From positions 1-64,000 of IMG/VR virus record IMGVR_UViG_3300031952_000005: a stretch of DNA of 64,000 nt; one strand, 5' to 3'. The stretch's first letter is position 1. Every line of letters begins with the position of its first letter. This DNA is from a virus. Made by a program: the position numbers and the translations under genes. Positions 33,303-61,949 of this stretch are shown piece after piece. The notes under the pieces are model-generated. The model was not told the DNA's origin, did not search any database, and was given only the letters and a program-made list of their open reading frames with translations.

Positions 33303-36300
33303 TTATTGATTACGTTTCATAATATCTATTCTCCAATTTGGATCTGCAATGTCTCTAAAGTTTTTAATACCAGTAAGATCGTAAAAATCTTTCATGATTT
33401 TTGCATCACCTTTCTCGTAACCACCAGCTTGTCTCATGTAGTGAGAATCTTTCCAGATTTCATATTTCCATCCACCATCATCTTCATCTGGTTCTTCTGA
33501 ACCATTAATTATCATTGATAGCATTAAGTTTAACATGTGACTACTTGTTGCCATTATTGCGTTTAACTCTCGAGTGTATGCAGTAAATGTTGTAAAGTTT
33601 TTAATATATTCTTTAGAACCTCCTCCAACAGGAAACATTGAGTTTGTTTCACCTTGCACACCCCATAAAACTCTGATTGCATTACCTTCTAAGAAAGAAA
33701 GTTCTTCATCATCATCATCTTTTTTACGAACATATACTAGTGCCATCATACTTAATACAGTAAATAACGCCATCATTATTGCATCGCGTTTTGCTTGATT
33801 AACTTTTCTACTATAAAAGTCATTCATTTTACTTTTGTTAGAACGCATTATGTGTTTGCTACCTAGTACTACATGTTTTGCAACTTCTCCTGGACCATAG
33901 TATTTTACTGCAGTAGCAAATGCTCTCCAGTATCCAACAGCAACTTCGCCTGCTTCATAGTTAGGTCTAAGATATCCAAATCTATTTAACATCTGAGGTA
34001 TTACATATTTTCTAAAGAAAAATACAAGTTTACCAGTTACAGTTTCTTCAAATGCAGTTTGATCTGATTTAGCATAGTTACCCTGTGCTCTACGCATTTC
34101 AGAATAAATAGTATTTCGCAATCTGTTTTCATCTTCTTGTGTATATTCTACATCAGCACGTCTTACAATAGCACCACTGGTATCTTTAATATATACTTCA
34201 TGTGCAGGTATAACTTCCTCTTCTCCTTCTGCATTCTTTCTGTATACTTTTTGACCATTTGCATCAATATCAAATGTTTTATATTTGTAACGATTTAGTA
34301 TAGCATACATTACTGTTACACCTATTTCAGTGTCACCTTTATCTTGTAATAAATATCCAAGTTCTTGTACATTCATTGCTTTTGCTAATAATCTTCTTGA
34401 GCTGTCACCAGTAACTTCATCAACGTATTTTAGATAATCTTTTTGCATTGGATTAAATAATCTGTACATCATGGTAGATTTACTAATGTCACTAACTCTA
34501 CCCCAGTCACCAAAATAGTTTTTGATAAATGCGTTTTCACCAAGTCCATATACTTGTCCTTTTGCCCACATGTAGTCTTCTTGACTGTAGTGATCACTTT
34601 CTAATCCACCTGCAGCAATGAATGCTTGTACATTACCAGATACGTAGTTCTTAGTCTGGTTAACAACATCAAATCCAATTCTGATAAAACTGGTATACGA
34701 CATTACATTATTTACAATCTTGGTAAGTTTTCTATTAAGATATGTAAGTGACTGATCTTGTGCATTAATAAACTTTCTCCTTTCAAATTTAAGTATAGAA
34801 ACCACATTATCAAGTTCTTTAAGACGTTTGTTCATATCAATAGGTCTACCATCTTTATCTGTTACAACTGCTTTGTTTTGAATAGACTTTTTTAAATCTT
34901 CAGATAGTAATTCTATACCTGCAATAAATATATCTCCTACTGGTGCAATTTCTTGCATTGCAATATTATAATGTGCTTCAGTAGTCCATTTAATTAAACA
35001 TCCTATTGCGTCTTTTGATTGCATGTTCTCAGGAAGTTGATCATTAAATCGCTGTCTAATTCTACCACCATTATCACCAAATGTATTATTTACAGTATCT
35101 TGTACACTATGCGTTTTCCATGCTTTGTCAATGTATTGCTCCCATCTATTTTTTGCACCTTCAATTACACCTTCTCTTGAGAAGTTCTGCATTGTAGTTG
35201 ACGCAAATCCAGGAACCATGTATCCAATTTTTTTACCATCTGTTCTTACTTGCAGGTCAAAAAACATCTTAGTTAGTTTATTATAGAAATTGAACAACTG
35301 TGGATCTTGCATTATGTTCATGTATTTACCACTAATATTTTCTGCTTTATAAGCAGAACGATCAATTTGATACACATCATCAGCATCTTTGTATATACCT
35401 TTTGGCATTGGTATACCATCAGGTGATTTTAAAAAGTCTGGATTATAAGATGATTCCTTAAGTTTTTTGATTTTGTATTTTGGATGAGGCAATGTTTCCA
35501 TAAATTCAGCAGCAGCACTAGGTGCAGGAAGTCTCTGATAGTTAAATGATTTTGCAACCATTCTTTTATAAATGTCTTCTTCAGTATCTAGTATACTTTT
35601 ATACGCTTCTTCATGAGTTAGATTGTACCATTTTTGAAATTCTTTTTCGTGTATGTCAAACTGATTTTCTTGGTCAATAACAGCTTTTGTTGCTTCAGTA
35701 ATTAAAGCAGCATCTTTTAAATCTTTTGCTTTTTCTAATGTTAGTTTTGCATTTACTAGTAATTTCTTAGAACTATACAATGCTTTTATTTTTACATCTC
35801 TTATTCTAAGATATGATTTAGTCAACTGCATTGACGCAATTCTGTTAATCTGTTCTTTTATAGAAGTAGATCTTTGTTTTTCTTCTGGAGTTAACTTACT
35901 CATATCAAAAGTCTTACCTTCAAATATAGACTCAAGTTGTGCTTCTATATCAGCAATGTTTTCAGCATCTTCTTCTGTAACAAATTGTGATTGAAGTATA
36001 CCTGCTACTTTGTGAGGTTTTAATATTTCTGAACGCTGTTTTATTAAATCAGCAACAGCAGAATCAGAACCAAATATTTCTGCGCGTTGTTCGTATAAAT
36101 CTGATAATACAGTGTACCATCCTTTTACCAGTTGACCATTAACTTCTTTGTCAGAAGTAGGAACAGTAACCTGGTTATCTTCAAACCATTTTTTAAGTAA
36201 CTCAGGATGCTCTTGAAACTTTGCAATTGCATCTGCTTTTTTTCTTTCAAAGTATGCTATACTTGTATCAAAATCAAAAAGATTATTAAACTCTTCCATG

Positions 36301-39215
36301 TATACAGCATACTGTGGATTAATCTTTTTTGCTTTGTTTCTTAATACACGAATGTCATCTTCTAATTCTTGCAGTCTATCAAAGTCATTGTCATCAAGTA
36401 ACACTTCATTTCCTTTTCCTACTTGGAATGTAATTTGTTGAATTTCAAAATATTTTTCCTGCAGTTCATTTCTAATGTCTTCAGGCATTAACTCTTGCAG
36501 TTTATAAAATGATTCATTAAATGGTAAAGATGTATTATATATTAACCATCTAATTCTTTCTGTATTAAACGCTTCTTTTTCTTTATACTTGTCAAACAAC
36601 TGTTGTTTAGCAGCATCATGTTCAGGAGTGCCAAATTTAGTATTTACCTCACTTACAAGAACACGTATATCAGCATTTAATTCTCTTAGTTTTGAAGTGT
36701 ATTCTTTATAGGTGTTTTCATATTGCTGACTGTATGGTTTATTAAAAGTAAGATTTCTTCTATCTTCATATTCACCAGTGTCTTTATTGAAAACTTTATA
36801 ATCTCTCCACTCAGATATTGCATCATTTAATTCATCAACAGTAAATCTTTTTAATAACTCATCTCTGTCTTTATCAAATTGCATAACAGCAAGGTCATTT
36901 TGCATATTGTATACAGCACGTGCTTGTCCATTTTTGTACATTTGTGTCATTGCAGATATTGCAAGGTCACTATTAGATGCAGATGCAATACCTTGGTCTA
37001 ATAATAATCCTGAAAATAATGATGTACTATTATAAATATCTTGTGAACCAATGTACACTTGTGAATTTGGATCAGTAACAGCATTAATATATTTCTTTAA
37101 TGCTTCTACGTTAAATTCTATTCCAGTAGTAACATACGCGCGTAAACGTAATAACTCAAGTTCTTTACGTTGTATATTGTCTAGTAGATTTTTATTAGTA
37201 ACATTACCTTTTGTAACTTTTTCTACAAACTCAGGTGATATTAATGATATTAAACTTCCTTTTAATTGCTTGAATAATCCTGCTGCTTTACCAGCTTTCA
37301 TATCCTCTAGTTCTTTTTCTAGTTGTGCAATTTTTGGTAAAAGTGCTTCACGTGTTTGTTTATTTACAGAAGAAAACACTGCTTCACCTGGAGTCATAAG
37401 TATCTTTACACCGTTTAGTAAAAATGCCTCTCTAAAATTAGACTCAATAGTTAAGTGATTTAATTCTAGCCGAGTTAATTTCTGATATACAGGACTGCTT
37501 AATGAAATATTATTTTCTGGATTTTTACTTGCGTCGTTAATAATGTTTTTTAATATTTCAACAATATCGCGTAGACCTTTGGATCTTGAAAATGCTTGAT
37601 GTATTTGTGTAGTATCTGTAGTAAAAAAATCTAGTGTGCCATTTCTAAATGATTTAATTGCTTCTTCTGACAAATCAGATAACTTTTGTAAGTCTTCTTC
37701 AGCAGCTGCTAGTATATTAAAAAAGTTATTTTGATATGCTTTATCTGTATTAGATGACTTTTCAACATACTGATTAAACGTTGTAAGAGTTTGTCTTCTT
37801 GTTGCAAGTAACTCGCGTAATGGTGTAGTGTTCTTACCTTGAGAATCTAACTCGTTAATTCTATTACGAATTTCTTCAATCTGTTGTTTATACGCTTCTT
37901 TTAATGCATCCATTATTCTCTGGTTTTCTTCTGCAGTAGGAGTAAACTCTAGAGTCTGAAAGTTTTTTAAAAGTTTATCTTCAACTTCTTTGTTACCAAT
38001 TGGTATTTCTTTATCGATGGCATCACGATATTCTTTTAATCTTCTAGCAGTTTCTAGTGGTTGTGTAACCCAGAATCCTGTAGTATTAGATGGAGTTACT
38101 GCGTATGTTGCATAGTCCCAGTAGTTATTACCTTGAAATATATGTAAAACCTCGCCTAAGAATTTGTTGTTAGCATCTGTCTGATACATAAGAGCAACAA
38201 TCTTACTTTCTTCTGTAACAAGTCCTATTTGACCAAGCATGTTTTCATATGCTTTTAACTGCAGTGTCCAGTTATCGTATGCTGTTCTATTTAAATTTAC
38301 ATTTTCTAATTCACCAGCCATTCCTTTCTGACCTTTTACAAGATAAGAAGTATTAGCAAGATTTTCAAATGCTCTATCTCTATCTACTTCAACACCAAAT
38401 GGTGTAACAGTGACCATGTTGTGAACTTTTTTAGTCTTAAAGTCAAACACTTTTACTTTACCAGAGTTACTGATAAGAAGTAAATCTAAACGACCAACTA
38501 CAAAGTTACCATTAGCATCTTTACCAGCAAGTGTAATTTCAGGTAATATAATATAACCTTCATCTTTGTTTATAGATACATGTTTTGCAACGCGTGTTGC
38601 CATGTCAAATATCTTTTCTTTAGATAGTTCTTCAATATAAAATGGAGTTCTTTCTAAATACTTCTTGTATGTTTCATCAAAAAATTCTTCAGTAAGTACA
38701 ACTTCAATACTTGAGTTTTTCTTTAATGCTTCTATCTGTGCTTTCTCTAACACATTATGCATAAATGTACCAAACAATTTAAATGCTTCATACTTTAAAG
38801 GATCACCTTTAAACTCAGAAGAACCAATAAATGATGTTACAGAATAAGAAGGTAGTGTATTTCGACCATCTTTGCGTAATTCAATATTCTTTTCTAGAAA
38901 CGCTTGATAGTCTCTGTTGTTTTGCATTAACTTGCCAATTGCCTCACGTTGTGCATTGTTTGCAAATAAACTAATATTTGCTAGAGTAGCTGCTTGTTCT
39001 TTAGTTCTTTCCAGTTTAAATTCATCAGAGTGTCGAACATGTCGCTCATCAGTTTCTTCAACTTTCATACCAGCAATAAGAGCTTTTGCTTCATCAACTG
39101 ATGGAATAATATCTTGATTTAATGTAACAGCAGTTCTTGCAAGAGCTTCATTACCTTCAAATGCAGCAACAAGTGCTTTGAACATTGGATCATTTATGTT
39201 AATACAATTTGTCAT
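33303..39215 (-). CDS. Giant virion cargo protein with an N-terminal PD-(D/E)XK nuclease domain
   Basis: SVTSFI, GTFMH, PE, GRLDLL, FDFKT, LQLKAY; coiled coils; hydrophobic C-terminal segment; directly downstream of the virion RNAP. Confidence 0.8.
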   Translation of the reverse strand: MTNCININDPMFKALVAAFEGNEALARTAVTLNQDIIPSVDEAKALIAGMKVEETDERHVRHSDEFKLERTKEQAATLANISLFANNAQREAIGKLMQNNRDYQAFLEKNIELRKDGRNTLPSYSVTSFIGSSEFKGDPLKYEAFKLFGTFMHNVLEKAQIEALKKNSSIEVVLTEEFFDETYKKYLERTPFYIEELSKEKIFDMATRVAKHVSINKDEGYIILPEITLAGKDANGNFVVGRLDLLLISNSGKVKVFDFKTKKVHNMVTVTPFGVEVDRDRAFENLANTSYLVKGQKGMAGELENVNLNRTAYDNWTLQLKAYENMLGQIGLVTEESKIVALMYQTDANNKFLGEVLHIFQGNNYWDYATYAVTPSNTTGFWVTQPLETARRLKEYRDAIDKEIPIGNKEVEDKLLKNFQTLEFTPTAEENQRIMDALKEAYKQQIEEIRNRINELDSQGKNTTPLRELLATRRQTLTTFNQYVEKSSNTDKAYQNNFFNILAAAEEDLQKLSDLSEEAIKSFRNGTLDFFTTDTTQIHQAFSRSKGLRDIVEILKNIINDASKNPENNISLSSPVYQKLTRLELNHLTIESNFREAFLLNGVKILMTPGEAVFSSVNKQTREALLPKIAQLEKELEDMKAGKAAGLFKQLKGSLISLISPEFVEKVTKGNVTNKNLLDNIQRKELELLRLRAYVTTGIEFNVEALKKYINAVTDPNSQVYIGSQDIYNSTSLFSGLLLDQGIASASNSDLAISAMTQMYKNGQARAVYNMQNDLAVMQFDKDRDELLKRFTVDELNDAISEWRDYKVFNKDTGEYEDRRNLTFNKPYSQQYENTYKEYTSKLRELNADIRVLVSEVNTKFGTPEHDAAKQQLFDKYKEKEAFNTERIRWLIYNTSLPFNESFYKLQELMPEDIRNELQEKYFEIQQITFQVGKGNEVLLDDNDFDRLQELEDDIRVLRNKAKKINPQYAVYMEEFNNLFDFDTSIAYFERKKADAIAKFQEHPELLKKWFEDNQVTVPTSDKEVNGQLVKGWYTVLSDLYEQRAEIFGSDSAVADLIKQRSEILKPHKVAGILQSQFVTEEDAENIADIEAQLESIFEGKTFDMSKLTPEEKQRSTSIKEQINRIASMQLTKSYLRIRDVKIKALYSSKKLLVNAKLTLEKAKDLKDAALITEATKAVIDQENQFDIHEKEFQKWYNLTHEEAYKSILDTEEDIYKRMVAKSFNYQRLPAPSAAAEFMETLPHPKYKIKKLKESSYNPDFLKSPDGIPMPKGIYKDADDVYQIDRSAYKAENISGKYMNIMQDPQLFNFYNKLTKMFFDLQVRTDGKKIGYMVPGFASTTMQNFSREGVIEGAKNRWEQYIDKAWKTHSVQDTVNNTFGDNGGRIRQRFNDQLPENMQSKDAIGCLIKWTTEAHYNIAMQEIAPVGDIFIAGIELLSEDLKKSIQNKAVVTDKDGRPIDMNKRLKELDNVVSILKFERRKFINAQDQSLTYLNRKLTKIVNNVMSYTSFIRIGFDVVNQTKNYVSGNVQAFIAAGGLESDHYSQEDYMWAKGQVYGLGENAFIKNYFGDWGRVSDISKSTMMYRLFNPMQKDYLKYVDEVTGDSSRRLLAKAMNVQELGYLLQDKGDTEIGVTVMYAILNRYKYKTFDIDANGQKVYRKNAEGEEEVIPAHEVYIKDTSGAIVRRADVEYTQEDENRLRNTIYSEMRRAQGNYAKSDQTAFEETVTGKLVFFFRKYVIPQMLNRFGYLRPNYEAGEVAVGYWRAFATAVKYYGPGEVAKHVVLGSKHIMRSNKSKMNDFYSRKVNQAKRDAIMMALFTVLSMMALVYVRKKDDDDEELSFLEGNAIRVLWGVQGETNSMFPVGGGSKEYIKNFTTFTAYTRELNAIMATSSHMLNLMLSMIINGSEEPDEDDGGWKYEIWKDSHYMRQAGGYEKGDAKIMKDFYDLTGIKNFRDIADPNWRIDIMKRNQ

Positions 39216-39218
39216 ATC

Positions 39219-42200
39219 TTATAAACATTTAAGTTTTTCTATAATTTCTTGATTTGTCATTCCTGTTGTTTTCAAATTAGCAGCATAAGCAGCAAACTCA
39301 GTAGAGTAAGTATCAAATGATTTACCAGTAGCACTCTGATCATAAAAATATTTTACCATATCAAAGGTAACATTAATATTCTGAATATCTAAATCCAATT
39401 TTGATGGTGTAGTTGTTTCAAAATAATCAACATAATAATCAGTAGGATCACTTTTTAAAGTTTCTAATGATGTTTTTAAGTTGTTTATTTTAGTTATAAT
39501 ATTTTGTTTTTCTGCAGCATTAACAGCTTTAAAAACAAAGTTATCTACAGAACCTGTTTTTGTGTAACCATCTTTATCTATTTTAATAGTGTATTCTTTA
39601 TTTTTAGCTGCTCTACCTTTTACAATTGCATAATCAGTATATCTTTCAATTTCTAAAACTTTAATTTTATATTCAGAAGAATTATCATCATTGTAAACTG
39701 TAAGAATGCTACCCACAGTAGTTTCAGTTGCTCCTGTAAGTTGTTGTCTTAATGATTCAAGTTCTTTATTAATTTTTTCATTATTAGATTTAACAGTATT
39801 ATATTTTTCTTCAGCTTTTAAAAAATTATACGCTTGTTTAATAGTGTCAAAATCTTTTTGTTCAATTTTATCTTGTAGACTTCTTAATGAAACACCTTGT
39901 TTTAATTGATCTATTGTATATTCTTTAAAAATGCTTTCTAAAGTTAAAATAACAGGTGTTTTAGGTTTAACAGAATAATCTTCAAACATGTCTGCAGTTA
40001 AACCTTGAGTCATTTCTTCTGCAACATCTACTTCTGACACATCAAGTCTTGCTTTTTTATTAACCAAACTTGTGTAGCGTTTTGATTCTGCAACACTGAA
40101 TCCAATAGGACTTATTGTATTTACTGCAAGTTCCATTGGAAGTGCCACATATTTTGCAGCATTACCTACTGTTTTAAATTCACCAGTACCAGATATTGAA
40201 TTGATAACAGATTTACCAAAACTTTGATTATAAATTTGACTGTCTACACCTTGTAACAAAAATGTAGTTTTACCCATTCTTAACATAATAGGAAACTTGT
40301 ACTTGTTCTTTTCATCTTTGTCTTTAAAGATATTTAGTTTTTCACCAATTGCTGCAATAGCACCACTTGTTGTTTCTTCCATCTCATTAGCACCTTTCAT
40401 GTTAATGATAATTTCTTCAAGTTTTTGATCAGCTCCAAATATAGTATCTGTTAGTAAGAAAGATTTTTGTGTTGGACTTAGTGTAAGACCTAATACTTTA
40501 CCAACTATTTCATTTGCAATTGCTGTACGTTCATTAACATCAGTAGTTTTAAAATTAATATTTTTCATAAGTTTAGAAGAAAACCCTTCTGACTGATTGA
40601 ATGAAATAGTATTACTCTTTTTATTAGATGTAGATTTTATCTTTTTATTACCAACTTCTTTTGATGCACCATATGCCATCAGTACAAACAAGTCATCAAA
40701 TAACTTGTACACATCTTCTTGTGTAGCAGGATTGTCAGGAGTACTAATGTAATCTTGTATTGCATCAACTAATTCTTTTTTATTACCTTGTGCATTATCG
40801 AGTATTTTAATAAACTCTTCTATGTTTTTAGATAATGGTATTTGTAAATCTGCTGGCAAATACTGTAAGAATGAACCTGATTTATATTGCAAACCTGTTC
40901 TAGCAAGTTCATGATAAAATAATTTTTTCATAAACAAGTTCTCTTGTTGCAATAAGAAATAAGCATCATCAGCTATGTTATCAGCTAACTCACCAGCAAT
41001 CTTTGCTTTACTTACCATCTCTAAAGTTTTTTCTTGAATGTTTTCTCCATCAGTAGTAAGTACTGTTGATTTACTATTAGACACTTTTAAGAACTGTAAA
41101 AACCTATTTTCAGGATATTCAGTCTTCATTGCATCTAGTTCTTTCTCAATTGAATTTGTAAACCATTGATCTGCTTTAAATGTATTAATTAAGTTTTTAT
41201 CATCTTCATCAAAACTTGCTTGCATAGATGGATTAGTACTTTTTCTACTACCAGGTACAGATATCTGATACTTACGTATAGCAATAAAACTTGTAATAAG
41301 TCTTGCAATATTTGATGAGTCTGTATATACAGTTTCAAATGCATTTTTAATTGGTTGAAAGAAAAGAGTTCTTTCTAAAAATATTTTACCTGCTTGTTCA
41401 TCTAAATCATTCATTGCATCTGCTAATGGAACCCATGCTTGTTTACCATCAAATAATTTATCACTTGATTCTTTAGTAAACATAGACTCACCATTACGTA
41501 GTTCATTGATACTTCTTTGTAATTTATCAAATGATATAAAAGTTGGATTAATTTTCTTATACAAGTTTACTAATGAACCTGCGTTTCTAATACCCCATGT
41601 TTGCTGTGTTTGTTCTTTATATAACTGTAATAATATTACTTTCTGTGCTTCATTAGATAATAGAGTAGTTACACCTTTTATATGAGAAGATACAGTAAAT
41701 CCAATATCTTCAACAGTAAGGGTGTTACTTTCTAGTCTACTTTCATTAAGAGCATTCTGTTGAAAATCAATCATCAAGTTTTCCTTGTTGATTTTAACAT
41801 TACCAGGAAATGAATCTTGTGTAATTAATCCTGCATCTTTTAGTTCATTTAATAATGCTGCATTACCATTGTTTTTGATAAAGTCTTCCATTTCAGTTTT
41901 TAACTCATTAGTCAAAAACTTGAACTCAGTTGATATAGAGTCACTTACTGCAAAACGAGATGCTTGTACTTTATTAATTGCATTGTTAATTTCTGGAATA
42001 AAGTTAAATCCAAATGCAAATGCGGGATCTAATCCAATACCTATCATTGCAAGAGTAACTCCTGTATTTATTTCATTCATTCCAAGTGCTGCTGGAATAG
42101 GTTTTTTCATACCATCTGCAGCAATACCTAATACAACACCATTTAACATGATTACTCGTTGTCCATTTTTGTTTATTACACCAAATTTAAAAAGATTATT

Positions 42201-48200: not shown

Positions 48201-51200
48201 AAATACTACACCTTTTGACAAGATAGAGTTATTCAAATAGATAACTTTGTCTTTAAACATTCCTAGTACGTTACCATCAATACTTGACAAATCAATTATA
48301 CTTGCAATTTCTTCTTGACTGATACCAAACTGAGGAAGATTTTCTTGTAACCATTGTACAGCATTCTGTCTTTCTGCTTCTGTTTCTGTTTGTACTTCTG
48401 TATTAGAAATAGAAAACATTTCATTTTCAGGAATATCATCTATAGTAACATTATTACTGTCTGTTACAATAATAGGTTGAGCTTGTACAACAACAACGTT
48501 TTCTACAGGGTGCTGTGTAACTTCTAATGGACTTTTATTAGATAAAGGTATTCCAGCAGCAGTTGGAGATTTTGAAGTGATTACAAGACGATTTCTTGGT
48601 ACATCTGATATATTAAAACTATTTACATTTCTTTCATAATCTTTTTTTGCTTGTGTGTCATTTAAATCTGAAAATACAACACGAGAAACTTGTTTACCTT
48701 CATCATCAATATCTACTACTAAATGTTTTGGTTCTGGATAGTCATTCATAAAGTTTTCAATAAATCCAGGATATTTTTTACCATTTTCTAGTAACTGTCC
48801 AATAACTTTATTAATTATTAATTTTGAAAACCCTTCTTGTTGTTCTTTTATTGCATCAATTAATTTTACTACATTAGGAGAAGAATTTGTATTACTATAC
48901 ATTTCATTTACCATGGAGTAAAACTTTGCAAGATCTTTTTGTTTGTTTAAATCTAATTTAGAAAATGCAATATTTTCTGCAACAACATCTGCTACTAATG
49001 AAGCATTGCCTCTTAGTGTACTTGCAAATGCTATTATTTTTCCTTCTTCACCATTAACAATTTTACCATCTACTACTCTTGGACCAAACGTAAAGTTAAA
49101 ATCTGATTTGTTATCTTCTATAAAACCATACTTACTATCTTTTGATTTATTAGATGGTCGTACTTCAATTTGCAAATGTCCATTTTGATCACTTGCAAAA
49201 TTTATAAATAATTCTACTTTTTTATTTGCTGATGCAAACGCTTTAAATTTGTAAACTTTTCTATCAAATGATTGTAATTGTAATTTTCTATCAGCAGCAT
49301 TTAATACATCAGATAACGTAGTTATAAATGTAGCAAACCCTTCTACTTGTGATAATACATTTACAGGAGATACTGCTCGCCATCCATATGTACCATTATT
49401 ATTAAACCTTATAATAATATGTCTCTGCGTATTATAACTACTACCTTTAAATATTTGATCTTTAATGTATGAATCATCAAGTTTTATTCTAGAATCAAAA
49501 TGTGAATTTACGTATTCTTCCTGTGTAACAATATCTTGTACATTACCTTGATTATCTTTTACAACAATTCTTTCATTAGAATTTAGTGTATTTAATAATC
49601 TAAATTTACTTTGTTTTGCTTTTTCAGGATAGTTTCCATCCTTATTTTTTTTGTCAGAAAACTTAGTAAATGCAAATACTACATTACGCTCTTCTTCTTT
49701 TATAGTTTTACCAACCTGGTCAATAGTGGCAATAGTTAATTTACGTGATAAATTTGTTTCTTCTTCTATTACTTCAGAAAGATTTTTAATTTTTGTGTCA
49801 CCTGTTTTTTGAGAACCAATGTTGTACTGAGAAAAGAATTGTTCTGTTACATCAACAGAATTTACATCATCAGTAAACTGAGGTTCTACAATTGCTGATA
49901 GTTGCTCTTTAAAGTCATTGTATAACTCATAAGCGTTTTTCATTGTGTTAATATCGTTCTCATCTAAACTATCTGTAGTATTATCATTTAATCTTTTGAT
50001 AGACAGTTCTTTAACTTTTTCAAGATGTACAGGATTTGAAAAATCTATTTTTTGTGAAGTGTTATCACTATTTAAAAATACATAGTTATCTAATGGATAC
50101 AAGTAAAATTTTTCACCAGTACCAATTATCTCACCAACTAATGCAAATTTACTTTCAGATTGTTGTGGTCTAGCAACTGTAATAACAGTTCCTTTTGAAG
50201 TTGATTTTAAATATTTTATTTGAGTTTCATTTTCAAATGTTTCATGTGTTCTGTTTGCAAGTCCTTTATATTTTGGATTAGTTGCAGCAAGTCCTTGTAT
50301 TCTACTGATACGATCATCACCAACAGTACTTAATGAAACAGCATGTATTCTTACACCTGCTGATGGAAAACCTGTTTTAGCAAGATTCTTTAATGCATCT
50401 TCAACTTTTTGTTGTAAACCAATTTCACTTCTTATAGGTTTAATAGTAAAGTTAGATGATATTCTATCCTGATAAAATTCTTGTTGTCCTTTGTTACTAT
50501 TAGATGTATCATCATTACGTGCAGGTCTTTCTGTTAAAATATCTTCAGCATCAAGTTTAAATTCATCACCATTTTCAGTTGTTATAAATAATCCTTCAGG
50601 TTTACTTGTTGCTTCAACCATGTTATTATCCTTAAATGTAACAAGAACAGTTTTTAATTCAGCAAGATCTGATATATCTCGTATTGCAATAAAATCAGAT
50701 TGTTTATTTAAAGATTCTATAACAGAGGTCATTCGACTTAATAAAAAACTTTTGTTATCAAAATTATTTATAACATCTCTTAGTTCAGATGTAATATAAA
50801 TTAATATAGTATTTTTTGTTTCAAGATCTTCAAAATCATTTGTGTTAAAATAGTTATTAATCATTGTGAGTACTTCTGTAAGATCATCACCAGTTATAAC
50901 TTTTTTATTTTCAAGATTTAGTATTGCTCTTTGAATTGCTTCAACTTTTCCAATAGGTGTTTTCTTAACAGTATATAATGGAGATATTGAAGAAAGAAAA
51001 TTATCAGCATCAGATAATAATATTTTTGCATCAATGATTTTTTCTGCATTTCCTACTTCATAAAATGATTGATCTAATCCATTTAAACCAACATATATTT
51101 CTGCAATAGAAAATAAAGAAAGTGATTTTTCATAATTAGAAAGACCACTTTTTAAAATAAACTTTGCAGTATTGTCAAAGTTCTTATATGTTTCAGGATT

Positions 51201-51263
51201 TAGTTTGATTAAATTTCTTACAACTGATACAAATTTGTCAGTTGATAATTCACATTGTTTCAT
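39219..51263 (-). CDS. Virion-packaged RNA polymerase (crAss-like, phi14:2 gp66-type) fused to a zincin-like domain
   Basis: RIPTEDKRS and catalytic AGSDFDVDS (43194-43208); FDGQS; FHEAFH (48186-48200) followed by EEILADGF. Confidence 0.9.
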   Translation of the reverse strand: MKQCELSTDKFVSVVRNLIKLNPETYKNFDNTAKFILKSGLSNYEKSLSLFSIAEIYVGLNGLDQSFYEVGNAEKIIDAKILLSDADNFLSSISPLYTVKKTPIGKVEAIQRAILNLENKKVITGDDLTEVLTMINNYFNTNDFEDLETKNTILIYITSELRDVINNFDNKSFLLSRMTSVIESLNKQSDFIAIRDISDLAELKTVLVTFKDNNMVEATSKPEGLFITTENGDEFKLDAEDILTERPARNDDTSNSNKGQQEFYQDRISSNFTIKPIRSEIGLQQKVEDALKNLAKTGFPSAGVRIHAVSLSTVGDDRISRIQGLAATNPKYKGLANRTHETFENETQIKYLKSTSKGTVITVARPQQSESKFALVGEIIGTGEKFYLYPLDNYVFLNSDNTSQKIDFSNPVHLEKVKELSIKRLNDNTTDSLDENDINTMKNAYELYNDFKEQLSAIVEPQFTDDVNSVDVTEQFFSQYNIGSQKTGDTKIKNLSEVIEEETNLSRKLTIATIDQVGKTIKEEERNVVFAFTKFSDKKNKDGNYPEKAKQSKFRLLNTLNSNERIVVKDNQGNVQDIVTQEEYVNSHFDSRIKLDDSYIKDQIFKGSSYNTQRHIIIRFNNNGTYGWRAVSPVNVLSQVEGFATFITTLSDVLNAADRKLQLQSFDRKVYKFKAFASANKKVELFINFASDQNGHLQIEVRPSNKSKDSKYGFIEDNKSDFNFTFGPRVVDGKIVNGEEGKIIAFASTLRGNASLVADVVAENIAFSKLDLNKQKDLAKFYSMVNEMYSNTNSSPNVVKLIDAIKEQQEGFSKLIINKVIGQLLENGKKYPGFIENFMNDYPEPKHLVVDIDDEGKQVSRVVFSDLNDTQAKKDYERNVNSFNISDVPRNRLVITSKSPTAAGIPLSNKSPLEVTQHPVENVVVVQAQPIIVTDSNNVTIDDIPENEMFSISNTEVQTETEAERQNAVQWLQENLPQFGISQEEIASIIDLSSIDGNVLGMFKDKVIYLNNSILSKGVVFHEAFHGVFRYLMTPEQRSRLIDAVSSNKKHKSAFTPAALKKFASEKNYVYEYDKMFQLQAEEILADGFQNYMNKNTKPQGLVAKLFELLKKLIDMFTQRSNLVDSTYKNIKRGYYKSEQIQSELYDGQAAYELIPGLKKIINDKYSSSGVSQSPTTLLKAEQNQLVYMMTKYVIENTSGQTFDAKFKTAQTLLLEKVYNLDELIKKNPGKEKQVLEQYSNLVSQYRFMLGARLNNETVNDINNSGNAAYKGKVLPNKVKQYEADPLDNNLGQVSVEVLKKLVKKKTQELYSLLDGTGTAIDKNTLLKELAGENEKKSQVDEDFEDGEEISDDINIDEGFGEHNRLDSAPRQLRRFLGIISYEKEDTESGILFPRVIDGESIFGSLLKISADVKVDEIINNMQVTAKIYKEDGNFDAAADLQAIYNQLKEYTGMDTNGNPSTNKELYNMFIDVLHGTEIEYVMLNARLKTAEIEEAGNNIESFTLTDRVLQADALKKRRDMVSSMITTHAKKRTDPEYVTAVKRLVTLSENIINKKILIGSLLNANTVLETMTFELYNAFKDVGITLPKSLIRMSILAIDKIDNLNGALENIDKKTLDHYATNSAMIADKAYLEKQFFRSIKSIYDPVINESISSNAFGKTLDENNKNLGAFFNISTRFAKYILKYDATDLPSVFRNAAGKPVYRYTKYTPLILTGQSLRREGLKDTLRTDPYYDDFLEDFYNDNPLFGDLLKDKTSKQATIAKLLLDNTNISLFGGVAQMNNQTYKEGKTFGKLDKQSFHVMSILSFLQRTTVSSYETVVDEDGNITTPKTSIQTFLRTFDTLEASQTNFLITSLYQTYADKNGLVKDGKNLKIVNDLEGKVKQEFNRIKKEWNRREVNKKNFDDGSSNKLINNYNGVLSKDDKTRATVDSENLRAYNFNYLPYFFANAKNELLTSKLLEYAKDDKASFEDIDESTLADLRQGLNDFALEELNTYINTLKKLGVVNEKEESVKAIKKDPATGKVIEEEGYPVVFETKQPSLRYLTSSLIADTLKIDNNLAVSTTSVYANTKPNYNVQGVLESRADLNGLLADFFFNQWYNSLMVNELYTGDKAMNVKDGIDSTKRNKKFLASGSTMKEGKHTVAYLNTLFGYINEEHPNYGPFYSPQEVLDDIQIPDETIRKTIYENFKLNQKVFDGQSISSLFHQADMHESLGRLTPEILHSIIAKHYRELTEEEVLKMEKNKVVNNPKKTVTASRNIYHKQSESYIDRNDVSILIIPEGMTRDQVYDNLHDKYMTIYALRKQIQEHHKINKDGSVSSNIEELEQQIQKTYLEIHAKYEPNRIKLHKILNSMEYHNIDQIMDTEASKNATKLPVDYFAHADNDYLPLNISSLKVNNEDKYLQVETSGVHDTARFSVQGKILLPADLNYIEELANKRHAEAGTIMSSTERKAMNELGDSLLKYQESLYDISDSNLQSLQHFLRKGEDFDLGKVFDLIRENLEQQNAPSSVLKLFDVDAFGKPVHSPNLPGIRSMLEYYFFSLYSKHITDEKGSGFKNIHVSSFGYDVREDENGEVITTEEYRNNPGKYRNTKVRPLGVRIEAEYDDAGELVSKKYFVECILPKQFFRSQQQEDFFMENLREMFALRIPTEDKRSMIVLKVVDYIDSSHINSIIVPQFIHLLAGSDFDVDSLYGQTFAHYVNAVGDYAKYGNYNIYKSPAQGKFIEYIHYRADDENFRKLISAKRKALTETNNFSVSANALEVMYAMGYTQEDYIKAMTSGIYEELESYEEDLQDDIKQIKSEKKVVKQAFVQSIEDTENDPDDYLAKANRRKFGKEHFDLKTELDETYQDLKKTRDEKRRLRTFANGSLRIEAALQVFEKYGLPVDQANFDSNIVNHLSVLPIHQNKNLQAKIDILSNEAVFKNLYIHETSSTEYFESIVTGYGRDLDNFGPKSDPNTITSVIESKALGAAYKDMIGIAASLQKFLALASQYELELNSDNVIWKYASNDLQSDGSTVVTQNNLFKFGVINKNGQRVIMLNGVVLGIAADGMKKPIPAALGMNEINTGVTLAMIGIGLDPAFAFGFNFIPEINNAINKVQASRFAVSDSISTEFKFLTNELKTEMEDFIKNNGNAALLNELKDAGLITQDSFPGNVKINKENLMIDFQQNALNESRLESNTLTVEDIGFTVSSHIKGVTTLLSNEAQKVILLQLYKEQTQQTWGIRNAGSLVNLYKKINPTFISFDKLQRSINELRNGESMFTKESSDKLFDGKQAWVPLADAMNDLDEQAGKIFLERTLFFQPIKNAFETVYTDSSNIARLITSFIAIRKYQISVPGSRKSTNPSMQASFDEDDKNLINTFKADQWFTNSIEKELDAMKTEYPENRFLQFLKVSNSKSTVLTTDGENIQEKTLEMVSKAKIAGELADNIADDAYFLLQQENLFMKKLFYHELARTGLQYKSGSFLQYLPADLQIPLSKNIEEFIKILDNAQGNKKELVDAIQDYISTPDNPATQEDVYKLFDDLFVLMAYGASKEVGNKKIKSTSNKKSNTISFNQSEGFSSKLMKNINFKTTDVNERTAIANEIVGKVLGLTLSPTQKSFLLTDTIFGADQKLEEIIINMKGANEMEETTSGAIAAIGEKLNIFKDKDEKNKYKFPIMLRMGKTTFLLQGVDSQIYNQSFGKSVINSISGTGEFKTVGNAAKYVALPMELAVNTISPIGFSVAESKRYTSLVNKKARLDVSEVDVAEEMTQGLTADMFEDYSVKPKTPVILTLESIFKEYTIDQLKQGVSLRSLQDKIEQKDFDTIKQAYNFLKAEEKYNTVKSNNEKINKELESLRQQLTGATETTVGSILTVYNDDNSSEYKIKVLEIERYTDYAIVKGRAAKNKEYTIKIDKDGYTKTGSVDNFVFKAVNAAEKQNIITKINNLKTSLETLKSDPTDYYVDYFETTTPSKLDLDIQNINVTFDMVKYFYDQSATGKSFDTYSTEFAAYAANLKTTGMTNQEIIEKLKCL

Positions 51264-51281
51264 AAGAATAATTTTTTTTAA

Positions 51282-54200
51282 TTATTTGAAGCAAGAAAGA
51301 GCATCTTTCAGTTGGTCAATTATTGAGGCGTCAGTAATAATGTCCTCCTTTACAAATTTACTAATTTCTTTTGACTTTTCTGCATTTACAGTTTTGAAAT
51401 CTTTAAGTTCCTCATTTAATGATTCTAACATGTTGCGATTAGTTGACAATACATTAGGAGTATTTACTACATCAAACAAATCAATTTGTTGTTCTTTACC
51501 AGCAGTAGGTGCTTTTTTCTTTGGTGCATACTTGATTGGTTTACCAGTTATAACAGATTCACGTATTCCTTCAAGTTTAGTTTTACCTTCTTTTATTGAT
51601 GCATATTCTTGTAATGTTTTAAAGTCAGTACCATTTTTACTATTATGCACTTTCATAGATTTTTCACCACGCGCTTGCATACTACTATACATCATAGTAT
51701 CTAGTTTGTCTTCTGGATTAGTCAATGCACTATCCATAAATGTTTTTACAAACTCAATATCCTTTCTAGTATTATTAGCAGAATCTACAATTTCCTGTGC
51801 TTTTACTTCTGTCTCAACAGTTTGTACTACATTATCATTTTTATCTTTTACATCAAATGTTTGTTGAGTATTTGTTTGAACAACAAAAGATTCTTTAGTC
51901 ACTGGTTCAACAGCAGGTAAATCCATCATTTGACGAAGTAAAGCACTTTGATCTAATGCATTTTCATTTTCTTCAGGAGCAGCATTTACATTTGGAGTAG
52001 GAGCTGGCGTAGGTGCAGGAGTTACAATTGGTGCAGGTTGTGGTGGTGTAGGTGGTTCTTCTTCTTCTACATTAACAACAGGTTCTTCAGGTATTTCTTC
52101 TACTGGTACAACAGGTGCACTTGATGCAGAAGTTTTATTTATTATTTTATTTAACGCTGCAAGTATATATTGTTTTTCAAGTAATATATCATCAATTTGT
52201 TCTTGAGTACCGTCGATAGTTAATTCATCATAAATTTCATTTACCTCAGTAAGTTCATGTCGTAACTCAAGTTCTGACATATCCAAGTATTGTTGTCCAG
52301 GTGTTGTCTCAGGAATTTCGTGTACAGGATCTTCAGATGTATTTAGTAAACCATTAGCTGCAGCAACTGCTTCTTCTTCAGTTGCATGTCCTTGTGTAAT
52401 AACTGTTTTGTTACTATCCATAACACCAAATGTACCATCAGGATCTTGAAAAGTTTGATTATCTAAATTTACTGGAGTAATATTTTGTTTAGCAATTTCT
52501 ACAAGTGCTTCAATTGATTGTTTAAATTGTGATGAGTTTACAAGTTTTTCTTCATTAGGACCTAGTGCAATTTCACCACGAGCAATTTTATCTACAAGTA
52601 ATTGTTCTTTAACTGGTTCAATTTTACCAGTAGCAATCATTTGATCATACTCTTCATCTGTAATGTCTTCTACATACTCGTTTGGTGCATACTTTTTAGT
52701 TATGTCAGCAAACTTTGCAATCATGTTATCTTTAAGATCATCAAACAACTTTTGTGCATACTCACCATTTGCAATACCAAGATTTGGATCAAGTGATATG
52801 GTCAATAAGTTTTTATAGTTTTCATCTTCATACAGCATGTTTATTACTTCAAAACCAATTTGCACTTTATCTGATTGATTAAATGCACCATTTACTTCTT
52901 CTAAACTATCAAGTAATCCACCTTGACCATATACACTTGCGTATATATCAAGTTGAAATCTATTTAAAAATGATATAATTTGAAACTTCATTTTACCATC
53001 AGACATTTTGCTAATAGCATACTTAAAGTTTTTAGGATTCATCAATGTATCAACAGCACTCATGTAATCTTTTGTGTCTTTATCAAGTTTCATATAATCT
53101 ACTAACTTGTTATGCACATCACGCATTGCTGTTTCAGATATTTCAGTATCAACACCTGCCTGTTTATTTTTTACATTTAATAGTTTTCTAAATACTTCGA
53201 TTACTTCTGCATCATGTGAGTCAAATGTAGTATTAGTACTTGCAACATCTTCACCATCTTCATTAGTAACTGTTTGTACTTTATCTAATCGTTTACCAAC
53301 AAATGTATCTAGTACAACATTATCTCTTGTTACAACTTCTCCTTCTTCGTTTAAAGCAATACCTACATCAGTACGTTTACTAAAGTAAGACTGCCACTTT
53401 TGTAAATTTTCTAGTTCATCTTTCTTATCTTCAATTTGCTTTTTAATTTTAGGTGTCAGTGATGCATCAGTATTTTGTTGTAAGTTATTTTCATATATTC
53501 TTAATTCAGACATGATGTTACCTAATTCATCATTAAGTATTTTAGGATCTGTTAATACACGTATAACATAATCTGAACTAGTAGCAATACTTGAGTTGCT
53601 TAATAACTCTTGTGATATTTGACTAGCACGTTTTGCAGTCATATCACCTTTGACAGCATTCATTGCAATTATATGAACAGCATCTTCTTCTGCAGAACGA
53701 GCAATCATTGCTGTATAATGTTCTTTACTACCTGGAGTATATAAACTAGGTTCTGTAAAATTCTTTATCTTATTTCTCAGACCATCTGTTACGTCAGAAT
53801 ATTTTTTAATATCATTTGCCAGATTCTTAGAAAAGTCTAATGGTGTTGCATACTTAGTATCTTCTAGTTTAACACCAAATGATTTTTCAAAATCCTCATT
53901 ACTCATGTCCACACCCATCTCACGAACAGCTCTTTGCAATACATCGATAGAATCTGTACGTTTAGCGGCAGATATTGCAGATACTAATGCATTATCTCTA
54001 CTATTTTCAAATTCATATTGTAAACCTTTTGCTGCAGCTTCTGCTTGATTCTGTCCTTCTTGTACTTGATTAACAAAATTTACTATTTTATGTTTAAAGT
54101 TTCTTTCTTCTGTTTGTTTGAAGAAAGTATTTAAATATTCTATGTCTTTATCAAACTGTTTTTTAACAGCAAGTACAGGATTATCTCCAGGAGTTTTTGC

Positions 54201-56096
54201 ATATTGACGCTCACTCATTTTGTCAGAGATACCTTCTAATGCTTTTGTTGTAACATGTACAGGTAATCTAACAAGTGTTCCTGTTAATGCACCCATCAAG
54301 AATGTTTTTAATCCTTGTTTACTTATCTCATCTTCAAATGCTTTACCAAATGATTCACTTAGTATAGAATTAGATTTCTGATACTGACCAACATAATAGT
54401 CTTTCCAACCATTTGCTGATATACCTTGCATGTTTTCTTGTAAACCTTCTACAAGTTCAAACCTTGCCATGTCTTTAAAGAATGCTTTACCTACTTGATA
54501 GGTTGCTTCTTTTTTACCAAAGTCTTTTGCTATTTGTCCAGTTACACCATACGCTCCAGCAAATCCTTTTTTGTAAAATTTCTTTAATCCATTCTTTTCT
54601 ACTAGTAATAAGTTATCTTTTGTTGCTTCTACCAACTCACGCATAGTTTTGTTTGCTGGTATAAACTTATTAAACATATTACCAAACTGTAACTTGTTAG
54701 TTGCCAGTAAGATAGCCATGTTTGTTTTGTAATTAGCTCCACTTGAATCCATTGAGATTTTTCTCATTTCTTCAAACTGAACTTCATTAGGATCATCACC
54801 ATTATTACTATTACGATGATCTTCAATAAGTTTGTTTAATGTATCACCATAAGAAGACACTGCTTCAAAAGATGATTCTGTCGCAGACATATTTAGTTCT
54901 TGTGCAACACGTCTAAGACCTTGTGCACCTATACCAATAAGTTTACCAGTAGAAAGTCCTGCTTCTACACCAGCTGCAACTCTTTCACCATATCGTATAC
55001 CACTACCTAGTAATGGTAATCCTCTTGCAACATTGCCAGTTAACTCAGCAATGCTTTTTGATTTCATTATACCTGGCAAATTACCACTAAATACAGTAAA
55101 CGTATCATTTAATGCTTGACGTGCAACAGAACCAGATACATTTGCAATTTCTGATGCTTCTCCTATTTTGTTTAATAATCTGATTTCTTCTGCAGATTTA
55201 TTACCTAACGTAAATCCTTGTGCAACATCTCTAAAAATATTTGTTTTTGTTGCAAGTGCTTCTGCAGATTCTCTTGCACCAACTTCTAGTGCATCCTTTC
55301 CCATCATTCTTCCAAATCCTGCACCAATTTTTGCAAAGGTAGGAGCAAATAATGCTGCGCCCGCACCACCTTCAGGAAGTGTTAATCCTGTAATTAATAT
55401 GTCTGCTGCAATTTCTAATGATAATGCACCAAATGTTCCAAGCATAAATCCACTACTACCTATAAATTCTGATATGGTTCCTTTAGTAAATATGCTATCT
55501 TGATCTTCAGGTGTTTGAAATACAAAGTTTTTTTGTGCATCTTTTTGGTCTTGATAATACTGTTGCATCATCTCATCTTCAGATGGCATAAGTAATGACA
55601 TATCCATGTTTGCTATTGCAGAACCTATTCTACCATAACCAATAAAGTTTTCTTTAAATGCTGCACCAAACTTACTTGACATAGAATCAAATCCTTTTGC
55701 AAGAGCAGTACCCCATGTTTCTTCTTTTAATGCTCTGTCAAAATTGGTAGAATCTAATGGGTTAAATCCACTAGCATTAAATGATTCTTGTTGTGTAAAA
55801 TTTGCAATAGTATCTGCATCCTGATATCTTACCCCAGGTGACTCTTGATAAGTCATAGAATCAATAAGAGACTTTCCAGGATTTATTTCTCGCGCAAGTT
55901 GTTGGGCACTTGCATTTTGTGCGTTACGCATTGTTTCTGCAAATGATCCATCACCAGGACCAGTAGGTATATTTTCTGGTACTATATTGGTGTTATTTGC
56001 TTGACTTTGTGATGACATTATTGAGGCAAAATCCTGTTGTTGATTTGCATCTGTAGCGTTTAATGATGCTGCTTCTAATTCTGTATTTTCTGCCAT
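51282..56096 (-). CDS. Giant virion cargo/ejection protein with Gly/Ala-rich membrane-like segments
   Basis: 1604 aa; hydrophobic Gly/Ala helices, EGLQE..Q motif, Pro-rich linker; upstream of the RNAP as in crAss-like phages. Confidence 0.7.
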   Translation of the reverse strand: MAENTELEAASLNATDANQQQDFASIMSSQSQANNTNIVPENIPTGPGDGSFAETMRNAQNASAQQLAREINPGKSLIDSMTYQESPGVRYQDADTIANFTQQESFNASGFNPLDSTNFDRALKEETWGTALAKGFDSMSSKFGAAFKENFIGYGRIGSAIANMDMSLLMPSEDEMMQQYYQDQKDAQKNFVFQTPEDQDSIFTKGTISEFIGSSGFMLGTFGALSLEIAADILITGLTLPEGGAGAALFAPTFAKIGAGFGRMMGKDALEVGARESAEALATKTNIFRDVAQGFTLGNKSAEEIRLLNKIGEASEIANVSGSVARQALNDTFTVFSGNLPGIMKSKSIAELTGNVARGLPLLGSGIRYGERVAAGVEAGLSTGKLIGIGAQGLRRVAQELNMSATESSFEAVSSYGDTLNKLIEDHRNSNNGDDPNEVQFEEMRKISMDSSGANYKTNMAILLATNKLQFGNMFNKFIPANKTMRELVEATKDNLLLVEKNGLKKFYKKGFAGAYGVTGQIAKDFGKKEATYQVGKAFFKDMARFELVEGLQENMQGISANGWKDYYVGQYQKSNSILSESFGKAFEDEISKQGLKTFLMGALTGTLVRLPVHVTTKALEGISDKMSERQYAKTPGDNPVLAVKKQFDKDIEYLNTFFKQTEERNFKHKIVNFVNQVQEGQNQAEAAAKGLQYEFENSRDNALVSAISAAKRTDSIDVLQRAVREMGVDMSNEDFEKSFGVKLEDTKYATPLDFSKNLANDIKKYSDVTDGLRNKIKNFTEPSLYTPGSKEHYTAMIARSAEEDAVHIIAMNAVKGDMTAKRASQISQELLSNSSIATSSDYVIRVLTDPKILNDELGNIMSELRIYENNLQQNTDASLTPKIKKQIEDKKDELENLQKWQSYFSKRTDVGIALNEEGEVVTRDNVVLDTFVGKRLDKVQTVTNEDGEDVASTNTTFDSHDAEVIEVFRKLLNVKNKQAGVDTEISETAMRDVHNKLVDYMKLDKDTKDYMSAVDTLMNPKNFKYAISKMSDGKMKFQIISFLNRFQLDIYASVYGQGGLLDSLEEVNGAFNQSDKVQIGFEVINMLYEDENYKNLLTISLDPNLGIANGEYAQKLFDDLKDNMIAKFADITKKYAPNEYVEDITDEEYDQMIATGKIEPVKEQLLVDKIARGEIALGPNEEKLVNSSQFKQSIEALVEIAKQNITPVNLDNQTFQDPDGTFGVMDSNKTVITQGHATEEEAVAAANGLLNTSEDPVHEIPETTPGQQYLDMSELELRHELTEVNEIYDELTIDGTQEQIDDILLEKQYILAALNKIINKTSASSAPVVPVEEIPEEPVVNVEEEEPPTPPQPAPIVTPAPTPAPTPNVNAAPEENENALDQSALLRQMMDLPAVEPVTKESFVVQTNTQQTFDVKDKNDNVVQTVETEVKAQEIVDSANNTRKDIEFVKTFMDSALTNPEDKLDTMMYSSMQARGEKSMKVHNSKNGTDFKTLQEYASIKEGKTKLEGIRESVITGKPIKYAPKKKAPTAGKEQQIDLFDVVNTPNVLSTNRNMLESLNEELKDFKTVNAEKSKEISKFVKEDIITDASIIDQLKDALSCFK

Positions 56097-58745: not shown

Positions 58746-58766
58746 GTTTATCTATTATATAAAATA

Positions 58767-61700: not shown

Positions 61701-61949
61701 TCCAGTATGTCTTTTACCAACAATTTTATTATGTTCTAAAAAACCATCATTGTTTATATCACCAATTACAGTTTCACCACCTTCAGCTTCTATATTTGCT
61801 TCTTCACGTGGTACTGCACTGATAGTGTTTTTGACATTACTATCTTGGTTAATTGGATTTACTTTAATGTATAAATCATTTCTATCAACTAAACTATAGT
61901 TACGTTGATCACCATTTTTTGGTAGTTGTTTTATTCTAATGTTGTACAT
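58767..61949 (-). CDS. Virion protein with EAEGGE/GKRH..GG domain and repeated xxxGG motifs
   Basis: ANIEAEGGET, GKRHTGGGVP, FIFSD; low-complexity linkers. Confidence 0.65.
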   Translation of the reverse strand: MYNIRIKQLPKNGDQRNYSLVDRNDLYIKVNPINQDSNVKNTISAVPREEANIEAEGGETVIGDINNDGFLEHNKIVGKRHTGGGVPLNVAPGSFIFSDTKKLKIKDPEVLSIFGITSFDKGGVTPAKIANKYPMNNYMNILKDNNYDQISKRTASKMLENNLEKLGMLALVQESMKGFPDGIPAIAESVMAGLQGQQAPGQEQGAPEEMMEGQEAAEEGQMRYGGSAYYQRAGTTKQPQTKKLPGKKKVAKEKPYIPTNTYKVGPDTSTGYWDRVGENWSSVDFKKSLNNPDDDPRMKQALKELIPFNGSSGVLDYAANMFTLPQKGINSLLTGYYESPMDTKSRYSPVSDTQHFWGDVATDPMIYPEIPVALGKGAVKLTGKAVQVAAPYVAQAAELTAKYGKQAGKFLAQYIGKIPFEQLLSKGYSIASRIGQAGLHAVDENENTNVEVTPQPKVKSVYAPTPIDTTRTAQERNVRTVVKENAPTVKQPQVVVASAPVVTNAVKPVASKVPVKAAAQSSNPNNNIIYTDEEFADGGLYLPKHQGTQPGVPSTVQGSGKTVVGYEYSNKTGNKRPVYSDGTKGQVILYDVEDADLTKTVQDKGYNFGYLPEDLRYKEKTVGPQTSQTGYKIDPESGFLYKDIKPGTRGLDEYMKIHADAINAYPGGAAKWRQDQIAGKGKANPAMTHLLEYENAAIGTVSGNKPYIDMGIEGALVPGVENYNLPGISKKPAPVVKTTPAAEQEFDIPVMENQMGPQERKPWWLQDQVYFAGKMTDDARKYGPGLAKVNLETSPYVLEDPARQIAALQEDAAATREGAYNSTAGNVAGASMVGQSNQRLGQIANTIGTVENRNVNTVNQALPRNAQIVNQERLLNANAQQKYLAESATANQQYDNARRDLKWGVIDAFNNGTTNMQRTNQLESMFPQYAFNRINGNVNFTQGREAYDENGNLLYDPYQNAAYPNDVASGNGYVTGPQFAAMKKDYMNNGMTSDQAHEAVLRQLGKSGSGTGSSQRNNMRDIVAAGQAIPQRVGKYGGYIKKYGGTVVDFGALPLYFFED

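Follow-up and report, generated by a model that had tools for sequence, protein, structure and literature searches.

Three adjacent genes in a 64,000-nucleotide stretch of phage DNA (hereafter the window, the first 64 kb of the 105-kb IMG/VR record IMGVR_UViG_3300031952_000005) encode giant proteins that we call, in gene order, A, B and C. The phage is uncultured and metagenomic; its replication module lies in the window. B belongs with the crAss-like virion RNA polymerases, judging from profile matches. The three proteins are almost devoid of cysteine (Cys), and most of the few Cys that they have are placed where the end of one protein faces the start of the next. Comparison with relatives strongly supports a simple rule: a junction carries two Cys, one on each side, where the genes are split, and none where they are fused. 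The explanation that we favour, and to which we give somewhat better than even odds, is that A, B and C are joined by disulfides into one chain in the particle, the split-gene equivalent of a Cys-free polyprotein found in some relatives.

A preliminary description of the window, made from the DNA letters, had put about 6 Cys in about 7,590 residues, four of them within 4 residues of a terminus. An exact count bears this out, with 6 Cys in 7,588 residues (0.08%), four of which lie ≤ 4 residues from an inner terminus. The boundaries and sizes that it gave for the three open reading frames, and its positions for the four terminal Cys codons, are likewise correct (Table 1). The two outer termini are Cys-free, as it had also claimed: A starts with MAENTELE, which includes a conserved MAEN.. 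motif, and C ends with ..IMKRNQ, part of a conserved ..RID..KRNQ motif. The only internal Cys are B2620 and C1406, and A has none. The chance that at least four of six Cys would fall in the 16 positions at the inner termini is ~ 3e-10. Cys makes up 0.96% of the proteome of the genome versus 0.12% of the block of large virion genes at 31333-69749.

Table 1. Features of the three giant genes. Positions are those of the window; negative residue numbers count back from the C-terminus, with -1 the last residue.
Feature	Position (nt)	Strand	Remarks
Protein A	51282..56096	-	1604 amino acids (aa), 177 kDa; proposed first link of the chain
Cys1602 codon of A (..ALSCFK)	51291..51293	-	only Cys of A, at -3
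Protein B	39219..51263	-	4014 aa, 455 kDa; proposed middle link; zincin-like HEAFH region and predicted two-barrel virion RNA polymerase
Cys4 codon of B (MKQC)	51252..51254	-	invariant alignment column
HEAFH zincin-like motif	48186..48200	-	B residues 1022-1026; H1022 nearly invariant
DFDVD catalytic motif of RNA polymerase	43194..43208	-	B residues 2686-2690
Cys4013 codon of B (..KLKCL)	39225..39227	-	invariant alignment column; position -2
Protein C	33303..39215	-	1970 aa, 227 kDa; proposed last link of the chain
Cys4 codon of C (MTNC)	39204..39206	-	invariant in the C alignment
PD-(D/E)XK nuclease domain of C	38421-38777	-	C residues 147-265

All four terminal Cys are kept in homologues, down to 19-27% identity, and many of these proteins, 2,000-4,000 residues long, have no other Cys. 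Every one of 23 A homologues has exactly one Cys, at -3. In B homologues, a C-terminal Cys occurs at -1, -2 or -6 in 44/44 and an N-terminal Cys at position 3-5 in 38/44; of the six without the latter, four are gene calls that are shorter and begin with unrelated sequence, and two come from genomes that lack a separate A gene. Among C homologues, which extend down to 27% identity, 83 of 84 have a Cys at position 3-8, and in many this is the only Cys in ~ 2,000 residues. The B alignment has only 25 invariant columns, and Cys4 and Cys4013 are among them. The internal Cys at B2620 and C1406 are limited to close relatives.

The rule itself emerges from a survey of 80 viral contigs (22-72% identity) gathered by pattern search with the B alignment. 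Cys counts follow the architecture of the module. Chains of three proteins have 1/2/1 Cys. Chains of four have 1/2/2/1, and thus three pairs; in these a separate 149-744-aa protein corresponds to the C-terminal part of B. It has exactly two Cys, one per end, and aligns to the end of B of the window, where the sequence is continuous and Cys-free at the split point. Chains of two have 1/1, with no N-terminal Cys in the polymerase and no Cys at all in the upstream protein. Single polyproteins of 5,520-5,639 aa have zero Cys, and the C profile matches the end of one such Cys-free chain. A family-A profile found no A-like sequence in the longer proteins of genomes without a separate A gene, so the description of A as fused to B in relatives is based on gene order, the MAEN start and the missing A gene, not on alignment.

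Both-sides presence or absence of Cys agrees in nearly all cases. The survey yielded 275 distinct same-strand junctions. Where the partner is at least 1000 aa long (186 junctions), Cys is present on both sides in 96, absent from both in 86 and one-sided in 4; the 89 junctions between small proteins of the same contigs include no Cys pair. The Fisher test on these counts makes no correction for relatedness. Counted by genome, the two sides are concordant in 65/70 cases at the N-side junction of the polymerase and in 82/83 at its C-side junction. Among the discordant cases, the first proteins of L094 (2504-7147) and L097 (2505-6755) have a single Cys at -24/-26, followed by a lysine-rich tail, and L071/L072 and L095 have no adjacent partner gene. 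The 46 complete distinct chains together contain 219 Cys in 316,964 residues (0.069%), of which 165 are at junction termini. The position is tightly held: of 80 distinct termini of each kind, 78 N-termini have the Cys at 3-5 and 73 C-termini have it at -1 to -3. Given this pairing, the two Cys of a junction appear to act together, standing in for a peptide bond.

The same pattern is found in cultured and named crassviruses. In phi14:2, the only Cys of gp67 (1797 aa) is its last residue and that of gp65 (1421 aa) is residue 3; with exactly two in gp66 (the polymerase of solved structure, 2180 aa), at 3 and -2, the three proteins together have exactly four. In crAss001, cr85_1 and cr128_1, a lone Cys is found at -3/-4 in the gp47-like protein and at 5 in the gp49-like one, and the gp50-like protein carries Cys near both ends, at 3-5 and at -1/-8/-9. 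All three phages encode gp47 on the opposite strand. Thus, the arrangement A-Cys, Cys-B-Cys, Cys-C proposed in the preliminary description holds as a pattern of termini, and strict gene order is not part of it. In the two-protein modules of five Intestiviridae (p-crAssphage, Rudgehvirus, cr3_1, cr11_1 and cr8_1), the first protein has a Cys at -1/-2, and the second has one at 3-5 but lacks any at the far C-terminus. The one apparent exception to pairing is crAss002 gp33 (L010, MN917146, 12089-24826). The start given in its annotation probably lies 32 codons too far upstream, since codon 33 begins an in-frame MSCTPSN.. that lines up with MAC/MSC starts in relatives; the corrected start restores the pair with gp32 (..FVCS).

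Some Cys in these phages have no evident partner. The 857-aa gp47 of p-crAssphage has a lone Cys, at -2, and the next protein is Cys-free. In five Intestiviridae (L009, L010, L013, L014 and L015), a 264-757-aa protein upstream of the giants has RCGG (CGGG in cr11_1) near its end and then a short tail of mostly basic residues (..RCGGHRR, ..RCGGKKKIA, ..RCGGSVKRKMKR), and this Cys also lacks an evident partner. Separately, a crAss-like polymerase module of 4518 + 1426 aa with a Cys pair occurs in RXKF01000051.1 (L012), which is filed under a ‘Rickettsiales bacterium’ metagenome-assembled genome and is most likely a misbinned phage contig.

Could the pattern be produced by chance, by composition, or by DNA signals at gene boundaries, such as start and stop context or translational coupling? 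The window genes are indeed adjacent, with gaps of only 18 nt (A/B) and 3 nt (B/C). However, the improbability calculated from the window alone, the invariance of the pattern over very divergent DNA, the variation in Cys position (3-6 and -1 to -7) and the lack of pairs at the small-protein junctions leave practically no room for such an artefact. A signal in the DNA is excluded by the modules in which the pattern persists with the partner gene on the other strand. Two further candidates were rejected. A split intein is not feasible: with the Cys 0-8 residues from the C-terminus an intein half would not fit, and the Cys at the N-terminus would serve no purpose. As for lipidation of the lipoprotein or CaaX type, the proteins show no signal peptide or CaaX spacing, and the pairing would go unexplained.

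A different question is whether the facing Cys bond with each other. The terminal Cys might instead link elsewhere, to the portal, the capsid interior, other cargo or a second copy of the same protein, or the two ends of B might close on each other. Particles of crAss001 do contain several structural disulfides, and the Cys that lack an adjacent partner in L071, L095 and p-crAssphage gp47 would be accommodated. Yet outer termini are nearly Cys-free (3 of the 219 Cys, all where the neighbour is missing), fused forms lose both Cys together and polyproteins have none, which docking to a third party would not predict. New splits, moreover, place two Cys exactly at the split point. We therefore consider linkage to other partners improbable, and infer that the Cys of a junction bond mutually.

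The bond between facing Cys is likely a disulfide. This is the simplest reading, given that each junction offers only two thiols, with neither histidine (His) nor another Cys next to them (of the surrounding residues, 0.3-0.8% are His), that other inter-subunit disulfides occur in crAss001 particles (crAss001 structure paper), and that the gp27-gp26 bond of the phage A4 structure, discussed below, is a disulfide. In the crystal of phi14:2 gp66, the termini are disordered, and the enzyme is active in dithiothreitol; the terminal Cys therefore lie outside the fold and the active site. A co-fold of the C-terminal 300 residues of B and the N-terminal 300 of C scored 0.12, which is below the mark and weighs neither for nor against the bond.

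A metal ion (Zn, Fe or Cu) clasped between the facing Cys would explain the pairing and the fusion and split rule equally well. It could form in a reducing cytoplasm, avoiding the problem of oxidation, and in principle the four Cys of three-protein chains could build one Cys4 site. But two-protein chains have two Cys and four-protein chains six, the scarcity of His and the lack of a second Cys nearby leave just two ligands per site, and the only solved example of this geometry, that of A4, is a disulfide. We see only a slim chance that a metal clasp is the correct answer.

We suggest that the three proteins, with the virion RNA polymerase B in the middle, would be packaged as cargo and joined in the particle by inter-chain disulfides, from A-Cys1602 to B-Cys4 and from B-Cys4013 to C-Cys4. 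The product would be a covalently continuous head-to-tail chain of ~ 7,600 residues (859 kDa), the split-gene counterpart of the single Cys-free polyprotein of relatives. The bonds may fix the order and number of the pieces as they are packaged and pass through the tail, and the thiols would be free again in the reducing cytoplasm of the host. That the threaded chain is released by reduction, as the preliminary description had it, is plausible and is not needed for the argument.

What would such a bond do? The segments around the terminal Cys are conserved well past the Cys itself (..IIEKIKCL; CPNPNxPEWKxLV). This could indicate a non-covalent docking interface that the Cys pair merely staples, with equal packing numbers of the proteins and no role in threaded ejection. 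The A4 disulfide, which ‘further stabilises’ a helix-in-cleft contact in a ring-shaped pre-ejectosome, would be a precedent. This alternative shares the disulfide with the explanation that we prefer and differs in role alone. An interface staple has no need of near-terminal Cys in nearly all 160 distinct termini, a placement that fits a near-linear joint, and an uninterrupted single chain is the natural alternative state of the module. We thus think a stapling role rather unlikely, and infer an order-keeping one. With Cys at the very ends of the proteins and an unbroken chain as the alternative, the joint would be near-linear, well adapted to packaging the proteins together in set numbers and to threading them through a narrow tail. 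It has been proposed that cargo must partly unfold to pass the tail (PMC10172136).

Several considerations weigh against a disulfide-joined chain. Particles assemble in the reducing cytoplasm, and many hosts are anaerobes. No members of thioredoxin families were found in the genome (87% complete), nor was an Erv1-type oxidase, by a search that had no working control. Some terminal Cys (those of L071, L095 and p-crAssphage gp47) belong to proteins whose partner is not the neighbouring gene. Phylogenetic replication is limited: on a FastTree phylogeny of the polymerase core, whose long branches call for a loose reading, architecture changed at least 12 times by parsimony, with ~ 6 changes forced by well-supported branches, and each change is accompanied by the matching Cys pattern. 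Independent contrasts are few (~ 4 N-side and 2 C-side); all 6 go in the same direction and 0 in the opposite one, and the sign test is non-significant for either junction type alone. The literature holds no biochemical or structural observation of the bond in any crassvirus. Finally, if polyproteins are cleaved after packaging, a suggestion made in 10.1101/2020.03.07.982082, covalent continuity would be inessential during ejection.

The assignment of B as a crAss-like two-barrel virion RNA polymerase of the phi14:2 gp66 type relies on a profile of 19 B homologues, which matches Protein Data Bank (PDB) entry 6VR4 (phi14:2 gp66) with E = 8e-29 in four stretches spanning gp66 residues 810-2006. 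GSDFDVD of B (2684-2690) is aligned with GSDFDID of gp66. A variant, GSDLD(I/V)D, replaces GSDFDxD in L043, L045, L048, L050, L056, L058, L060, L063, L065 and L067. Presence in the particle and delivery into the host have been established for this type of RNA polymerase in phi14:2 and crAss001 only. The region of B with HEAFH aligns to the zincin-bearing C-terminal part of crAss001 gp47 and has no Pfam match; we describe it as zincin-like, a putative metallopeptidase. The nuclease domain of C matches Pfam PF12705 (E = 7e-6, 26.5 bits, with a cut-off of 22), and its residues D244, D258 and K260 are invariant in 41 sequences. This is the sole Pfam match of the three proteins. None of A, B and C has a family match in PHROGs or a match in single-sequence PDB searches, 6VR4 being reached by profile only, and a DNA search of a phage collection returned no match. 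A belongs to no known family by the PHROGs, Pfam and single-sequence PDB searches. Profile mapping indicates that the distribution of domains differs among crassviruses, with the zincin-like and nuclease regions in gp47 of crAss001 and the C-like region at the end of the fused polymerase in crAss002.

Immediately upstream of A, at 56100-61949 on the minus strand, are genes for an 881-aa and a 1060-aa protein that have zero Cys, and their counterparts in relatives (with MATF/MATY.. starts) are likewise without Cys. These proteins are Cys-purged, yet outside the chain. Another protein of the virion block (537 aa, 62046-63659, minus strand) starts MNKKCTEC, which holds its only two Cys. Its relative in L102 (57% identity) starts MQNSNQNRCPEC and has two further Cys at 42 and 51. 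A pattern scan returned no relatives of the 537-aa protein. Its N-terminus looks like a small zinc-ribbon-like knot, not an instance of the chain rule.

Among the phages of the human gut, crassviruses are the most abundant. From the rule, two or three particular bonds are expected in cultured phages; it also accounts for the free splitting and fusing of huge genes, can be used to correct gene starts (as for crAss002 gp33), and provides a simple sequence mark of the injected chain in uncultured phages. It bears on how near-megadalton amounts of protein, including the polymerase that starts the infection, are delivered, a question raised in PMC10172136 and for which structures are still needed (PMC13434306). 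More tentatively, short-tailed phages in general may rejoin injected pieces through terminal Cys pairs. Such phages would feed one thread of up to ~ 1 MDa in fixed order, with reduction in the host cytoplasm freeing and perhaps activating the polymerase, and splits and fusions would be tolerated as the Cys pair replaces a peptide bond. This extension is possible, although we would bet against it.

How does the window compare with systems that are already known? The modules of phi14:2 and crAss001 share with it a homologous RNA polymerase core and the same terminal-Cys pattern, and their proteins have been found in particles, as is predicted for A, B and C. They differ in that sequence identity to the window is very low, and in crAss001 the zincin and nuclease regions are in gp47 rather than in B and C. 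The single ‘polyprotein’ modules, for which cleavage after synthesis has been proposed (10.1101/2020.03.07.982082), resemble the window in having the same polymerase core and a C-terminal region like that of C, here within a single 5,500-5,650-aa polypeptide. Unlike the window, they have no junctions and no Cys. Schitoviridae also have a giant particle-borne RNA polymerase and ejection partners that are Cys-purged relative to the proteome (N4 gp50-52 and DEV gp71-73), a suppression that has been attributed to passage through the periplasm (PMC11445570). However, these have practically no Cys and one giant polymerase chain, whereas the window retains a Cys at every partner-facing end.

The closest parallel is the pre-ejectosome of the cyanopodophage A4 (Anabaena phage A-4L), for which cryo-electron microscopy of the mature particle revealed a disulfide between gp27 Cys1715 and gp26 Cys5 (PNAS 2025, PMC12002296). 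We checked the A-4L genome and found that gp27 (1717 aa) has its sole Cys at -3 and that gp26 (1114 aa), encoded by the next gene, has its sole Cys at 5. The preliminary description knew of no account of such a mechanism. As regards a single bond this no longer stands, given the A4 structure; as regards a rule in Crassvirales, we found none described. These Cys are not mentioned in the phi14:2 preprint, the crAss001 structure paper, the 2026 N4 paper or wider literature searches, and the word ‘cysteine’ occurs 0 times in a Crassvirales review. In PMC12002296 the A4 bond is presented as a structural detail, not as a rule of gene splitting. A4 has one link versus two to three in crassviruses, and involves no RNA polymerase. 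Neither gp26 nor gp27 is matched significantly by the profiles of A, B or C, and the resemblance is one of working, not of family. In both cases the phage is short-tailed, the proteins are packaged for ejection (by prediction in the case of A, B and C), and a C-terminal Cys faces an N-terminal one, at A/B and again at B/C in the window. The head-to-tail Cys(-3)-Cys5 bond in the A4 virion makes the disulfide chemistry proposed here plausible.

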